From: an uncultured Haloferula sp.
Lineage (GTDB): Bacteria > Verrucomicrobiota > Verrucomicrobiia > Verrucomicrobiales > Akkermansiaceae
Assembly (NCBI GenBank): GCA_965652295.1
Contig: CBFGTS010000001.1
Coordinates: 320,001 to 384,000, forward strand
Reading direction: 5' to 3'
DNA length: 64,000 nt
Each line of letters begins with the position of its first letter. The first letter of the stretch is position 1. This document shows, one piece after another, positions 19,220 through 24,659 of this stretch. Below the pieces are notes generated by a model. That model had not been told where the DNA came from and did not search any database. It was given only the letters and a program-made list of their open reading frames with translations. Both the position numbers and the translations under genes were made by a program.

Positions 19220-19750
19220 ATGAAACTCCCTGAAGTTTTCTGCCTCTTCGGTCTCGCCATCCTGTCCATCGCCCAGGCGGAGGAAATGCGCGAAGCTCCG
19301 ACTCACGAAGAGATTCTCCACCGGCTGCGCGTCCAGCGGCAGAATGATCCGATGAAGGATCTCCAGATCGTGGAAGGCGATGATCCATCGAAGACCAACC
19401 GGCCCGCCGATATTCTGGAAACCTCGGAATTCCTCTCCTTTTCCGGCCTGACGACGCTGGTGCCGAAGGGTGCCGTGCTTCATGTTCCGGCCCACCTCCA
19501 GACGCGGATCGGCAACCAGAGTGGAACGCGCATCGTGACCTGGTCCCAGTTTCTGGCCGAGAACCGTTCATGGATCGAGGTGGTGGAGTTCCAATTCGCC
19601 CAGGTCGCTGGCAAGGAGCCGTTGCCTGCCGGCCTGATCGGAAGCATGAAGGACTCACGTCGCATCATGGTGGCAGCCGTTCAAGGAGGGCCGATCTCGG
19701 TGCCCCCGGCGAAGATCGAGGAAGCGCGGGCCGCCGCCGAGGCGAAGTGA
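19220..19750 (+). CDS. Exported hypothetical protein
   Basis: Signal peptide MKLPEVFCLFGLAILSIAQA; TLVPKGAVLHVP. Confidence 0.7.
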   Translation: MKLPEVFCLFGLAILSIAQAEEMREAPTHEEILHRLRVQRQNDPMKDLQIVEGDDPSKTNRPADILETSEFLSFSGLTTLVPKGAVLHVPAHLQTRIGNQSGTRIVTWSQFLAENRSWIEVVEFQFAQVAGKEPLPAGLIGSMKDSRRIMVAAVQGGPISVPPAKIEEARAAAEAK

Positions 19751-19821
19751 CGCCGACCGCCAGGCTCACGGACTGAGCCATCATTTTCCGCCGGTCGTGC
19801 CGGCGCGAAGGGAACAGAACG

Positions 19822-19856
19822 AAACGCGCTGGTGTGGGACACCAGCGCGTTTTTTT
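19822..19856 (+). terminator. Intrinsic terminator
   Basis: AAACGCGCTGGTGT-GGG-ACACCAGCGCGTTTTTTT after the three-gene operon. Confidence 0.8.
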
Positions 19857-20227
19857 GGCAACGCCGGCAAGGAACACCCTCCCAAGAGGGGCTGCGGTTC
19901 TTCGCGCTCGGCGGGGACGGACTGATAAAATTTTTACGATTCTGAGTGGGGCGATGCAGCCGCTTGAGGAGGAAGCGGGTCTGCGATGAGGCGCCGCACG
20001 CAGGAACGAAAACCGGGAATGCTTCCGAGTACACTCCGAATCCCAAAGTACACCTGAGGTACACCGCAAGTTCCCAAGATGGACGGGGAGGGTGGTTTTC
20101 TAAAAAAACAGACCCTTGTTTAAGCCGTTTAGAAGGACTTGGAACACTGAAGTCCACTGGAAAACACCTCGTAACTCACTGATTGATAGTGATTTAAAAA
20201 TTATTCACAACGGCTCGAATTTCTCTT

Positions 20228-20252
20228 GCGGGTTTTAGTGTACTTTGGTGTA
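20228..20252 (+). promoter_or_regulatory. Putative MraZ-binding dcw boxes (10-bp periodic GTG repeats)
   Basis: GCGGG (20228), GTGTA (20238), GTGTA (20248) just upstream of mraZ. Confidence 0.55.
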
Positions 20253-20287
20253 GTTGGCGCACGGCAAATTCCGCCCGCCCCCTTTGA

Positions 20288-20743
20288 ATGTCCGCAACCG
20301 TCCAGAATCTGGAGAACCACTTTGTCCACAAGATGGACTCGAAGAACCGCGTGTCGGTTCCGACCGAGTTCCGTTTGGTGGAGGAGGGGACGCCGATTCG
20401 GATCATGCGCTCCAGCGAGCACGGCGAGCCGGTGATCAAGGTGTTCACCGAGGATCACTACCAAGGGAAGTTCGAGGAGATCGAGCAGGCCGAGGGGCTG
20501 CTGCCCGCCAAGAAGAAGCAGCTCGTGAGCGCGCTGCGCATGTTTTCCAAGCAAGTGACCATCAGTCCCCAGGGCAAGCTGACGCTGCCGAAGGACTGGT
20601 GCGACAAGGTCGGCCTCCGGGCCGAAGAGCACGCGGTCCTCGGGGGCTGCGGCGATTATTTCATTATCTGCAGTCAGGACGCCATGACCCGCATGGAGGA
20701 GAGCCTCCGCGATCTCGACGACGGCGGCCTCGGCGTCCTGTAA
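20288..20743 (+). CDS. mraZ: Division/cell wall cluster regulator MraZ
   Basis: HKMDSKNRVSVP.EFR and VTISPQGKLTLP AbrB-like repeats; heads the dcw cluster. Confidence 0.88.
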   Translation: MSATVQNLENHFVHKMDSKNRVSVPTEFRLVEEGTPIRIMRSSEHGEPVIKVFTEDHYQGKFEEIEQAEGLLPAKKKQLVSALRMFSKQVTISPQGKLTLPKDWCDKVGLRAEEHAVLGGCGDYFIICSQDAMTRMEESLRDLDDGGLGVL

Positions 20744-20780
20744 CCAAGATTTTCACCCAACGAACGACGACATGCTGTTC

Positions 20781-20858
20781 GCCCAACCAACCCTGGCATC
20801 CGGCACCACCCGCCCGGAAGCACCCACTTCCTCCTTCGGGCGGATGTCGGGGTTGGGC
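20781..20858 (+). ncRNA. Long leader hairpin with pyrimidine-rich loop (mraW-motif-like candidate)
   Basis: Nested stems GCCCAACC/GGTTGGGC, CCTGGCATCC/GGATGTCGGG and CGCCCGGAAG/CTTCGGGCG; loop CACCCACTTCCTC. Confidence 0.5.
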
Positions 20859-20868
20859 ATGTTTTTCC

Positions 20869-21415
20869 AGCCGCGGCCCGGAGCAATCGGGACAGCGCTT
20901 TGCGCCGTGGCTACCCAAACGGTTGTCCGCTCCGGTTTCCATGGCTGGTTTGCGGAGCGGCGACCGGTGATTTCCCAGGCTGAGCGGAAGGAGTTTCTCG
21001 GGACAGTACTCCTTTCGCCGATTACCCCGCGTGTCCGTGCCGGTTTCCATGGCTGGTTTGCGGCACGGACCGCGGCATTTTTTTCCAACGACACTCCGGC
21101 TCCGTCTCTCGGGACAGCGGCGGCACCGGAGTCACTCATGACGGTTGTCCGCTCCGGTTTCCATGGCTGGTTTGCGGGGCGGCGACCGATGATTTCCCAG
21201 GCTGAGCGGAAGGAGTTACTCGGGACAGCACTCCTTTCGCCGATTACCCCGCGTGTCCGCGCCGGTTTCCATGGCTGGTTTGCGGCGCGGACCGCGGCAT
21301 TTTTTTCCAAAGTAGCTCCGGCTCCGTCTCTCGGGACAGCGTCGGCTCCGGAGCTTCGCAAAACGGTTGTCCGCTCCGGTTTCCATGGCTGGTTTGCGGA
21401 GCGGCGACCGGTGAT
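20869..21415 (+). repeat. Array of five ~111-nt two-hairpin modules (222-nt higher-order repeat) between mraZ and rsmH
   Basis: CGGGACAG at 20888, 20999, 21110, 21221, 21332; CCGGTTTCCATGGCTGGTTTGCGG at 20932, 21040, 21154, 21262, 21376; each is flanked by inverted repeats. Confidence 0.92.
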
Positions 21416-21419
21416 TTTC

Positions 21420-22382
21420 ATGAGCGAGTCGGCCGAAGGCGGCGCTTGCGACTACCACCTGTCGGTCCTTCCGGAGGAAACGAAGCATTGGATGGCCGCA
21501 GGGCCGGGGAAGTTCATCATCGATGGCACCCTCGGCGGAGGCGGCCACAGCGAGGCGTTTCTCAAGGACGGAGCACGCGTGCTCGGAGTCGATCGCGATC
21601 CCGAGGCCATTGCCTACGCCAGCGCACGGCTGGCCCCGTATGGCGACCGCTTCCGCACGTGGCATGGAAACTTTGCCGATCTCTGTGAAGATCCCGAGAT
21701 CCAGGGGGGAGAGCGGGCCGACGGTCTGCTCCTGGATCTCGGGGTGTCTTCCCATCAGCTCGATGCCCCGGAGCGGGGCTTTTCGTTCATGCGCGAGGGC
21801 CCGCTCGACATGCGCATGGGCCCGGCGGTGGAAAAGACCGCGGCGGATCTGGTCAACACCTGGTCCGAGGCGGAAATCGTCCGCATCCTCCGCGAATACG
21901 GCGAGGAGCCCAAAGCGCGCCGGATCGCGGCCGCCATCGTCCGCCAGCGGGCGGAGAAGCCGTTTTCCACGACCACCGACCTCGCCGGCTGCATTGAAAA
22001 GACGGTCGGCCGCAGCGGTCGCACCCATCCGGCCACCCGCGCTTTTCAGGCGATCCGGATCGCCGTCAATGACGAGCTCGGCTCGCTGAGGAGAGCGTTG
22101 GAGGCTTCCATCCATCTTCTGAAGCCCGGAGGACGGTTGCTGGTCATCACCTTCCACAGCCTCGAGGACCGGATGGTGAAACAATTCATGAGGGATCGGT
22201 CCCGGGAATGGATCGACCAACCCCAATGGCCGGAGCCACGGCGGAACCCCGACCGGGTCTTCCGGCTGCCACAGTTGAAGGCGATCGCCGCAACCCCTGA
22301 AGAAATCCAAGTCAATCCCCGGGCCCGCAGTGCGAAACTGCGGGTCGCCGAGCTTCTGGACCCAGCCGAAACCGCACCATGA
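21420..22382 (+). CDS. rsmH: 16S rRNA m4C1402 methyltransferase RsmH (frame open back to ATG 20772)
   Basis: HLSVL, DGTLGGGGHS, DLGVSSHQLD, RGFSF..GPLDMRM, HPATRAFQAIRIAVN, ITFHSLEDR, NPRARSAKLR. Confidence 0.96.
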   Translation: MSESAEGGACDYHLSVLPEETKHWMAAGPGKFIIDGTLGGGGHSEAFLKDGARVLGVDRDPEAIAYASARLAPYGDRFRTWHGNFADLCEDPEIQGGERADGLLLDLGVSSHQLDAPERGFSFMREGPLDMRMGPAVEKTAADLVNTWSEAEIVRILREYGEEPKARRIAAAIVRQRAEKPFSTTTDLAGCIEKTVGRSGRTHPATRAFQAIRIAVNDELGSLRRALEASIHLLKPGGRLLVITFHSLEDRMVKQFMRDRSREWIDQPQWPEPRRNPDRVFRLPQLKAIAATPEEIQVNPRARSAKLRVAELLDPAETAP

Positions 22383-22720
22383 ACCGCCGACGCTCCGAAC
22401 CCAGGAAATCCCACCTCGCCGCCTACATCGCCCTCGGCCTGCTCACGGGCATCGCCACCACCGGTGGAGCCATGCACGCGATTTTCCGCAACGGCCAGAT
22501 CCAAACCGAGCGCAAGATCAGCGAGGCCCGCAAGCGCATCGAGGAAGTCCGGGCCGACATCCAGTTGATCGACGTCCGCCGCGAGCGCCTGATGGATCGC
22601 TACGAGATCCGCGATCAGCTGGCCATGCTCGACTCACCGCTCGTGCCGGTGACCTACGAGGTCATCGAGCGCATCCAGGACCCTTCGGTCGAGCCCATGC
22701 CCGTTGCCGCCCATCCCTGA
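22379..22720 (+). CDS. ftsL: Probable cell division protein FtsL
   Basis: Single TM plus coiled coil, located between rsmH and ftsI. Confidence 0.65.
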   Translation: MNRRRSEPRKSHLAAYIALGLLTGIATTGGAMHAIFRNGQIQTERKISEARKRIEEVRADIQLIDVRRERLMDRYEIRDQLAMLDSPLVPVTYEVIERIQDPSVEPMPVAAHP

Positions 22721-22727
22721 TTTTCCC

Positions 22728-24659
22728 GTGACCCGGCGGAACTTCCAGCGTCGTTGTTTGCTCCTGTGCTCGATCTTCGTGATCGGGCTCAGTTTGCTTT
22801 CGGTGCGGTTGATCCAGATCCAGTTGCTGGACCGCCAGAAATACCGCGAGCGCGCCCGCGCCGCCTACGACCGCAGCGAGGTCTTGCCCGGCCTCCGGGG
22901 GAAAATCGTCGATCGCAATGACGAGGTGCTGGCGAAGAGCATCGGGCTCAGCACCATGATGGTCGATGCGAAGCTGCTCCAGGACCCGGTCGTGGTCGTC
23001 CGCGCCCTGGCCTACAAGCGCGCTTCCACCGAGCCGGGATGGGACCAGCTTGGCAGTGATGAGAAGGCGCGCAAGGTCAAGGCCTACCGCAGCGTGATTC
23101 TGGAGGAGGAGAAGGAAGAGCTCCATATTCTCGTCGATCGTCATCTCGCCCATGCCGTGGGACTGCTCGCCCGTCCGCTGGGCCTCCGTCGCGAGGAACT
23201 CAGGGCACGCATTGAGGAGCCGCTGGCGAAAGGACGGAAGTACTTCCCCATTGCCAAGGACCTGCCCGAAGACATCGCCGATTCGATCCGCGAACTGATC
23301 GAGCGCAACGACCTCAAGGGCTTCCGTTGGGACAACAGCATCAAGCGCTGGTACAGCTCGCCCGATCTCGCCGTGCACGTCGTCGGCTACACCGGGGAGG
23401 AGAAAACCGTCGATGACCGGGGCGAGGACAAGTTCATCCAAGTCGGGAAGTTCGGCGTCGAGGCGGCGCTTGAGGAATACCTGCGCGGGCGCGACGGCCG
23501 CTGGGATCACCTCAACATTCCGATGCCCGGGGAGAAGGGCAACATGATCCCGCCGGTCCATGGCCTCAACGTCCAGCTCACGCTCGACATGGGCATCCAG
23601 GCGATGGTCGAGGAGGAATTCGACGCCGGGCTAGCGGAGTTCAAGGCCGAGCGTGGTTGCGTCGTCGTGCTGGATCCGGCTTCCGGCGAGGTGCTGGCGA
23701 TGGTCAGTCGCCCCGCCTTCAACCTGAATCTCAAGGAAGGTTTGTCCGAGGGCGCGATGAACTACGCGCTTCAGGGAATTTACGAGCCCGGGAGTACCTT
23801 CAAGATCATCGCCACCGCCGGGGCGCTGAACGAAAAGCTCGTTTCTCCGGACACGATGACTTTCTGTCACAACGGTCTTCTTCAGGAAGGCAAGCTTCGC
23901 ATTCCGGATCACCACCCCTACGGAATGCTGAGCGTCTGGGGAGTGCTTCAGAAATCGAGCAACATCGGCGCGTTCAAGATCGGGCGTCAGCTCGGGACGA
24001 AGCGCTTTTTCAACTATGCCCGGCGCTTCGGTTTCGGGGAGGAAACCGGAATCCTACTGAGCGGGGAATCGTCCGGGGTGGTGCGCGACACCAACAACCT
24101 CATCGATTTCAGCCGCCAGACCTACGGCTACGCCCTGAATGTGACTCCGCTCCAAGTGACCAACGCCTACGGCGCGATTGCCAATGGCGGCGAGTGGATC
24201 CGCCCGCGGGTCATCCGCTCGATCATCGCCCGCGATGGCACCGTGCTGGAGCGTTTCGAACCCGAGGTCGACCGCCGTGTGATCAGCGAACGCACCGCCC
24301 GCCAGATGCGGGAAGCCCTGGTGACCGTGGTGGAAAAAGGCGGCACCGCCACCCAGGCCGCGGTGCCGGGATACAAGGTCGCGGGCAAGACAGGGACGGC
24401 GCGGCGGGTCGAGGACGGCCGCTACCAAGAGGGCCATTACACCGTTTCCTTCGTGGGCTTCATGCCTGCCGAGGACCCTGCTTTCGTGTGTCTCGTGGTG
24501 GTGGACGACCCCCTCACCACCGAGGTCAAACGATACGGCGGCACCATTGCCGCACCGATTTTCGCGAAGATCGCCGCACGACTCGCAACGCACCTGCACT
24601 TGACTCCGACCGAGCCGGTGGACGACGAGGACGAACTCGCCGCCACCGAAAGACGATGA
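22728..24659 (+). CDS. ftsI: Class B penicillin-binding protein (FtsI)
   Basis: RGKIVDRN, GVE, EPGSTFK (SxxK), SSN, GKTGT. Confidence 0.9.
   Translation: MTRRNFQRRCLLLCSIFVIGLSLLSVRLIQIQLLDRQKYRERARAAYDRSEVLPGLRGKIVDRNDEVLAKSIGLSTMMVDAKLLQDPVVVVRALAYKRASTEPGWDQLGSDEKARKVKAYRSVILEEEKEELHILVDRHLAHAVGLLARPLGLRREELRARIEEPLAKGRKYFPIAKDLPEDIADSIRELIERNDLKGFRWDNSIKRWYSSPDLAVHVVGYTGEEKTVDDRGEDKFIQVGKFGVEAALEEYLRGRDGRWDHLNIPMPGEKGNMIPPVHGLNVQLTLDMGIQAMVEEEFDAGLAEFKAERGCVVVLDPASGEVLAMVSRPAFNLNLKEGLSEGAMNYALQGIYEPGSTFKIIATAGALNEKLVSPDTMTFCHNGLLQEGKLRIPDHHPYGMLSVWGVLQKSSNIGAFKIGRQLGTKRFFNYARRFGFGEETGILLSGESSGVVRDTNNLIDFSRQTYGYALNVTPLQVTNAYGAIANGGEWIRPRVIRSIIARDGTVLERFEPEVDRRVISERTARQMREALVTVVEKGGTATQAAVPGYKVAGKTGTARRVEDGRYQEGHYTVSFVGFMPAEDPAFVCLVVVDDPLTTEVKRYGGTIAAPIFAKIAARLATHLHLTPTEPVDDEDELAATERR

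Follow-up and report, generated by a model that had tools for sequence, protein, structure and literature searches.

What is a tandem array of paired hairpins doing at the 5′ end of rsmH, and is it the RNA or the encoded peptide that selection maintains there? The question is raised by an uncultured Haloferula sp., from which we analysed a window of 64,000 nt (the whole stretch of DNA considered here, numbered from its first letter) that carries such an array in the dcw operon. The closest named records to the source DNA are Haloferula and Luteolibacter species.

A hairpin array inside the rsmH reading frame

A preliminary description of the window had reported a hairpin B recurring exactly every 111 nt and alternating with a hairpin A. 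The five B cores, their exact spacing and the alternation with five A loops are confirmed in the sequence. The A loops are spaced by 108 or 114 nt and therefore the true repeat is 222 nt, with 92% identity. On the forward strand, unit 1 lies at 20869..20966 (B1 20869-20912 with the loop CGGGAC, A1 20920-20966 with apical UGGCU), unit 2 at 20984..21075 (B2 20984-21018, A2 21027-21075, then a 7-U run at 21078-21084), unit 3 at 21093..21188 (B3 21093-21132, A3 21142-21188), unit 4 at 21206..21297 (B4 21206-21240, A4 21249-21297, then a 7-U run at 21300-21306) and unit 5 at 21312..21410 (B5 21312-21357, A5 21364-21410). All ten hairpins fold locally as claimed, but an eleventh and larger one had been overlooked: hairpin C (20781..20858, forward strand), a long stem of -42 kcal/mol that begins 9 nt past the A of the AUG. 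The 18-nt sequence described as the A loop is present five times, but folds as an internal loop with an apical stem of 2-3 bp. Allowing up to 2 mismatches, this 18-mer is found 5 times in the 4.37-Mb genome, always inside the array. The compensatory changes cited between copies (T21038/A21065 to C21260/G21287 and A21093/T21132 to G21315/C21354) can be read in the sequence, as can the change A20956 to G21178 in the third A stem. The array region folds with a z of -4.9, more stable than 100/100 shuffles; the reverse strand is also strong (z -6.4), so that strand is not assignable from folding energy alone. A CRISPR had been discounted, rightly, as what varies is the paired stems, which recur in duplicate at 222 nt, and there is no Rfam CRISPR match.

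The array had been placed upstream of rsmH, in an untranslated spacer. Instead, it sits within the rsmH ORF (20772..22382, forward strand), a long form of 536 aa of which residues 228-527 are the RsmH enzyme (TIGR00006, 316 bits). The RNA array is carried by an N-terminal extension of 216 codons (20772..21419, forward strand), whose peptide has no family or confident fold. The catalogued RsmH product of the source genome is 414 aa, versus 536 aa for the long ORF, and RsmH starts have probably been mis-called in many genomes of this clade. An internal ATG at 21420, just 3′ of unit 5, is not conserved.

All genes of the operon described here are on the forward strand. A divergent mraZ (20288..20743; NF001476, E 5.5e-10, below the cut-off of that model) precedes rsmH. 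It is itself preceded by a probable dcw promoter (20226..20254) containing the hexamer TTGCGG and a pair of GTGTA repeats spaced by 10 nt. These repeats look like MraZ boxes, which is likely given the form GTG(T/G) in the accessible text of PMC12957436. A promoter-like motif 5′ of mraZ was seen in 40 loci inspected; a simple sigma-70 scan found 0 sites, so the dcw promoter call is putative. Three inverted TACAC copies at 20030-20070, approximately 180 nt 5′ of the GTGTA repeats, are likely MraZ boxes too, and a terminator-like bidirectional hairpin at 19822-19859 closes the genes preceding the dcw promoter. Downstream, the ATG of a probable ftsL (22379..22720) overlaps the rsmH stop (ATGA); the name comes from position alone, no Pfam match above cut-off being found for this ORF. 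An ftsI-type penicillin-binding protein follows (22704..24659; PF00905, PF03717).

We then compared mraZ-rsmH regions. Both genes were present in 76 regions; after removal of two that contained N runs, and of contig-end fragments and named duplicates, 74 loci remained: 29 from genus g1, 37 from g16, 6 from g17 and 1 each from g45 and g48 (that is, Haloferula, its sister genus and three further genera). In 74/74 loci a frame starting at an AUG 4-125 nt (median 34) 3′ of the mraZ stop runs open into RsmH, with no in-frame stop more than 45 nt past mraZ, and the remaining two frames are open in 6/74 and 12/74 loci. The B-to-B spacings are divisible by three in 189/208 cases. The stretch from the final loop to the enzyme core lacks an in-frame ATG in 57/74 loci and lacks ATG, GTG and TTG altogether in 34/74. 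Metagenome arrays that include an RsmH start are open in 70/71 cases, the exception (L247) having two in-frame stops. A Shine-Dalgarno-like word was found in 1/74 loci (within the 20 nt 5′ of the rsmH AUG), the start context being C/A-rich. Two frames are represented among the B loops, giving LGT or SGQ, and GGCUG occurs in a second frame within the linkers. From these sequences we infer that ribosomes translate through the array. In the RNA contigs of four runs (shares of 0.08-0.20 across five runs), the array was covered by one 151-nt piece at a depth of 2. A programmed frameshift was considered and rejected, since the U7 runs are not conserved and the B loops that seem off-frame are a local matter, with the ORF staying intact.

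Selection on the RNA and its distribution

In 18 five-unit g1 sequences, 95.0% of 2732 cells are paired, in a structure derived partly from this alignment. Double changes occur at 64/152 pairs, compared to 38.9 in shuffles (0/500 as high) and 11-20 in slid controls. Under a tree-aware, substitution-permuting null (100 rounds, custom script; FWER<0.05), 3/12 in-register A pairs (2, 4 and 5) and 4/10 B pairs (1, 3, 4 and 5) pass. On the sense strand there are 163 G-U against 17 A-C pairs, the paired columns coming partly from this alignment, which favours G-U. Taken singly, the A hairpins fold well beyond shuffles (median z -3.3) and the B hairpins weakly so (-1.5). The A hairpins also have a U-rich 3′ tail, with at least 4 U in 8 nt for 241/261 host hairpins. 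Thus the claim of a conserved tandem structured RNA that is tied to rsmH and covaries across homologues is borne out. The suggestion that A hairpins dimerise via CCAUGG fared worse: 137/200 distinct A hairpins have a form that is 3 nt shorter and lacks CCAUGG. The pairing of loop B with loop A, also proposed, is hypothetical: loop B does not vary, and most g17 loci have B hairpins and no A hairpin (below).

The loops are conserved at the level of the nucleotide. With loops chosen by their peptide, the codons are near-fixed (GGC 267/272, GGG 263/271, ACA 242/271), unlike those of the enzyme motif DGTLGGGGH, where Gly and Thr codons vary (ACA 6/74). Over 153 pairs, which are not independent, the median pN/pS is 0.87 for the extension and 0.26 for the core, and pS is 0.31 versus 0.54. 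The extension peptide gave nothing over Pfam cut-off and a blank result in the ESM Atlas, AlphaFold, run from 18 sequences, gave a pLDDT of 34.7, and of 17 matches of the repeat peptide 16 are the RsmH extension itself. Selection targets the RNA, and the peptide looks like a passenger. An essential housekeeping ORF has accepted 100-310 added codons that serve RNA structure, in an RNA family with strong covariation and no Rfam model; being coding, it would have been missed by intergenic screens.

These observations bear on a peptide repeat with a function of its own, such as binding a membrane or a partner, of which the hairpins would be a by-product. The frame is open throughout, dN/dS is 0.39-0.97 in close pairs, and short RsmH extensions in other families contain the peptide HLxxWP, encoded by varied codons. 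Against this stand the two ratios above, the lack of a confident fold or family, the identical motif in different frames and the non-coding copies in phages (below), and we regard such a function as very unlikely.

A covariance model was built on the B+A unit and searched in genomes, with 26 candidates scored per genome. In the source genome it has 5 matches, 5/5 within the array, and an nhmmer search agrees. Matches occur in 38/151 family genomes, those listed lying at rsmH or at contig ends, and are distributed as g1 16/16, g16 16/16, g45 1/1, g17 4/14 (weak), g15 0/17 and 0 in other genera. In a phylum sample 2/151 genomes match, both g1. Host copies are therefore confined to rsmH among the candidates scored in the source genome and the 151 family genomes, in agreement with the earlier view that this is not a scattered REP or MITE. 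The 111-nt period is exact in the window but is not conserved across loci, where 208 B-to-B spacings include 105 (66), 111 (55), 108 (30) and 114 nt (14). Arrays hold 1-9 B hairpins in the 74 complete loci, with unit order shuffled; unit counts from drafts may be wrong because assemblies often break in the array. Such breaks were seen in drafts L002, L020, L071, L083, L090, L092, L096 and L097. In g17, 5/6 loci hold B hairpins without any A hairpin, a UGGCUG linker preceding B, and in the g17 loci L034 and L139-L145 one B hairpin directly abuts the enzyme core.

Hairpin C has a wider distribution. It shows double changes at 11/14 pairs (30 sequences), a similar stem lies 3′ of the rsmH AUG in g48, g52 and g46, and a folding z below -2.5 at its site was found in 11/13 loci of array-less family genera versus 0/18 in other families. 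Judged from sequence comparison, hairpin C predates the array, since it occurs in genera without the array too.

In g15 a degenerate Y1 transposase domain occupies the place of the array in RsmH. At loci L035-L050 this is an approximately 200-aa IS200/RAYT-like domain fused in frame, which passed the Pfam cut-off in 1/6 scanned. In other Verrucomicrobiales families (L053, L054, L056, L059, L060, L061, L063 and L067) the short HLxxWP extensions of RsmH have varied codons and RNA structure that is not in excess. In genome G000, RAYT-like domains stand in frame in ORFs of 1514, 917 and 1198 aa (C3:252502, C17:82645 and C17:91668), their flanks being translated REP-like sequence. A link between RAYT and the array was rejected, as the Y1 genes inspected in the source genome have no array-like flanks.

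Single copies of the module in phages

Viral contigs searched with a pattern of the loops alone yielded 7 loci, of which 5 scored 43-55 bits, and a metagenome search added L214, L223 and L228 (42-55 bits). Together the copies on phage or phage-like contigs collapse to five distinct modules at 42-55 bits. Each consists of one B and one A hairpin, carrying the host loops on fully paired stems. The stems are unrelated to those of the hosts, with at most 6-12 nt common to any host array. In 5/5 cases the module lies 22-32 nt 3′ of a stop codon. The genes on the 5′ side are scaffold/protease-like (before the major head gene), portal, tail (two) and endolysin, the tail assignment for L228 being made from its likeness to L204. 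Clear U-tails follow hairpin A in 2/5 modules, plus a third (L228). One phage copy precedes promoter-like sequence and others resemble plain terminators, which weighs against the elongation reading discussed below.

Of 167 viral loci fetched, 100 were scored with the model and all 167 were submitted to a script filter, which missed the L204 module. The 100 further pattern-selected viral loci gave, above 18 bits, nothing but re-finds of three known modules, and the GGGACGG loop variant was found in 0/74 further viral loci. One pattern-selected coding match (L279) scored 29.7 bits and was rejected by the stem filter.

The module-bearing phages probably infect array-bearing bacteria, as judged from gene relatedness. 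The closest family relatives for the contigs of three of the five modules are in array-bearing genera. The capsid of one module-bearing phage is 81% identical to that of a g16 locus, which shares the leader 5′ of the capsid gene; a phage tail gene has family homologues in 3/32 g1 and none in other genera, and a phage portal gene has them in g17 alone. The family loci with homologues of neighbouring phage genes carry the module in 0/25 and 0/4 cases (excluding L604), and thus the host assignment is indirect. The same hairpin pair in host and phage suggests an undescribed RNA signal that may be common to both.

Read-through of the phage stop codon was rejected as an explanation, since the stop-to-loop distance falls in all three frames. 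Several further observations were made on these and other loci. The B-to-A loop distances in L203, L204, L207, L214 and L228 are 43-52 nt and all 1 modulo 3, though non-coding, which may be chance. In L214 a second near-perfect long palindrome (1275-1330) comes right after the module 3′ of the endolysin gene. In L501 (1120-1300) a simple GT-rich tandem repeat, in place of a scaffold gene, lies 5′ of the capsid gene and its leader. Genomes of g15 (L502-L519 and L525) contain a podovirus-type major head homologue at 33-38% identity in 17/23 cases, above random-prophage expectation.

Possible functions and likeness to known systems

We tentatively favour, with somewhat less than even confidence, a dual-hairpin signal that would act in cis on elongating RNA polymerase, giving put- or nut-like read-through or conditional termination. 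The functional unit would be one B+A dual hairpin of approximately 90 nt, and a host component would read its loops, namely GGGAC[A/G]G in B and the Y-rich internal loop and UGGCUGG in A. In the nascent transcript the module would alter the behaviour of RNA polymerase at downstream pause or termination signals, as HK022 put or lambda nut sites do; the outcome may be read-through, or a ligand-dependent termination at the U-tract 3′ of hairpin A. The host may have set the module behind the gene that opens the long dcw operon, in a tolerant rsmH N-terminus, and multiplied it in frame. Because trailing ribosomes unwind hairpins, several copies could improve the odds that one folds, or could tie the outcome to how near translation trails the polymerase. 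The phages of these hosts would keep one non-coding copy behind a structural or lysis gene. Host and phage settings have in common a long operon and a module just past a gene. One non-coding phage copy and many coding host copies, with common loops and free stems, point to a host ligand reading the dual hairpin in cis. We infer that the array is transcribed and actually translated, that it has a ligand and that elongation is the step controlled. A multivalent binding scaffold, as proposed earlier, is plausible.

Several findings weigh against control of elongation: g17 holds B without A hairpins, one metagenome array is interrupted by stops, a coding match reaches 29.7 bits, and the independent phage modules are five only. 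A fuller version would have a host-encoded, translated array of polymerase-modifying modules, tuned by copy number, coupling the flow of ribosomes along rsmH to transcription of the entire dcw operon, with a single module adopted by the phages of the clade for their late operons. This would be a signal class with no described counterpart; we hold it as a possibility with considerable doubt. If elongation control is true, there would be a new layer of dcw-operon control beyond MraZ. The phage copies narrow the question to one 90-nt module, and suggest a host factor exploited by phages.

The module could instead act after transcription, in cis, as a site where a host RNA-binding protein or nuclease sets processing, 3′-end stability or ribosome transit. 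It would mark or protect transcript ends between genes in phages, and in the host would gate translation of rsmH and of the coupled ftsL-ftsI. The phage copies lie directly after a stop codon in 5/5 cases, hairpin C begins just past the AUG, and the next start overlaps the rsmH stop. RNase III-type cleavage does not require invariant loops, which counts against such a role, and the protein concerned is hypothetical. The dcw operon of Escherichia coli does have stable ORF-internal RNAs, according to the accessible text of PMC6156199. On balance, we consider a post-transcriptional role possible but on the unlikely side.

An excised, trans-acting sponge, in which the array is cut from the mRNA and titrates a regulator in the manner of CsrB/RsmZ while phage copies serve as decoys, would suit a tandem of hairpins in which loops are fixed, stems are free and copy number varies, and has a precedent in the E. 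coli decRNAs. We think it unlikely: no CsrA was found in the source genome (0/1; control 3/14; genome 98% complete), single cis-positioned phage copies would make poor sponges, and strict frame keeping suits a cis role equally.

Autoregulation through RsmH, MraZ or the 30S subunit, by rRNA mimicry or pairing, would explain why the array is in rsmH. Here a same-genus 16S/23S was used, as rRNA is missing from the source assembly. The loop-B variant of g17 (L034 and L139-L145) equals 11 nt of a 16S strand (shuffle P ~0.007, uncorrected), which we take to be the helix-18 5′ strand. This strand is also in 6/10 genomes without the array, and the other loop variants tested, including those of the window, match rRNA no better than shuffles. 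Moreover, the likely MraZ boxes (GTGTA) are unlike both loops and the phage copies are remote from any rsmH. Autoregulation is thus quite improbable.

Lastly, a selfish or domesticated palindromic element (REP/BIME, Rickettsia-type or RAYT substrate) is largely refuted, although the source genome contains 12 matches to Y1_Tnp and is rich in REP-like repeats, one of which bears a GGGAC loop, and g15 has its Y1 domain at the same RsmH site: model matches are restricted to rsmH, loops are fixed while stems vary, the strands are asymmetric and the peptide is absent from other proteins.

How, then, does the array compare with known RNAs? Rfam 15, at gathering threshold, gave no match in window positions 19700-21600, 7 related loci or 6 phage-related loci, all scores being far below. 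CsrB/RsmZ sponges have many hairpins with fixed loops, and are non-coding and free-standing; GGA is in loop B as in their loops, in a genome with no CsrA. Rickettsia palindromic elements are palindromic coding repeats inserted in frame, dispersed, and driven by peptide or mobility. PARCEL repeats, as described in the accessible part of PMC2996958, are likewise in-frame palindromic coding repeats, scattered across many genes, with peptide or mobility as the driving force. The array differs from both in being restricted to rsmH and RNA-driven, and the dispersed copies typical of REP/BIME, RPE and PARCEL were absent among the 26 candidates scored per genome.

The decRNAs of E. coli, in mraZ, ftsL, ftsI and murE (PMC6156199), are also structured RNAs internal to ORFs of the same operon, with reduced synonymous change, a feature that the array shares (see pS above). 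They are single, non-repetitive and defined by decay data, as a stable fragment exceeding the mRNA; the accessible text of that paper gives none in rsmH. The mraW RNA motif of Actinobacteria (RF01746) is a further structured RNA located at the 5′ end of mraW/rsmH. Its loop is conserved while its stem varies, and it consists of one hairpin with the loop CUUCCCC (PMC4607514, accessible part). The accessible parts of this and further sources (PMC2864571, supplement; PMC5784534) describe no tandem array or phage copy. The best genome match to RF01746 is 15.1 bits (cut-off 50) and lies outside the array; hairpin C is its positional analogue.

ANTAR targets are two small similar hairpins, the second overlapping the terminator. 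They share with our module a dual hairpin, conserved terminal loops and, in the accessible text of PMC3369931, termination control, whereas the module is two different long hairpins; the two are set apart by description. The array is a real RNA family, undescribed within the literature covered: no paper on the element was found in a search that covered few subscription papers, and supplements of later RNA-motif screens could already list the motif.

Lambda nutR, like the phage modules, is placed after a stop codon, in its case that of a first gene. In HK022 put, two adjacent stem-loops in the phage transcript are likewise cis-acting and dependent on a host component (PMC9378689, accessible text). 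The put sites described there lie close behind early promoters, while our five phage copies follow the stops of structural or lysis genes, in late regions, which counts against the elongation reading. The put RNA itself binds the β′ zinc-binding domain, suppresses termination with no need of protein factors and is approximately 70 nt to the module's 90. The module matches it neither in sequence nor in Rfam, and is also host-chromosomal, tandem and translated. By analogy, it would work most like a dual-hairpin elongation signal of this kind.
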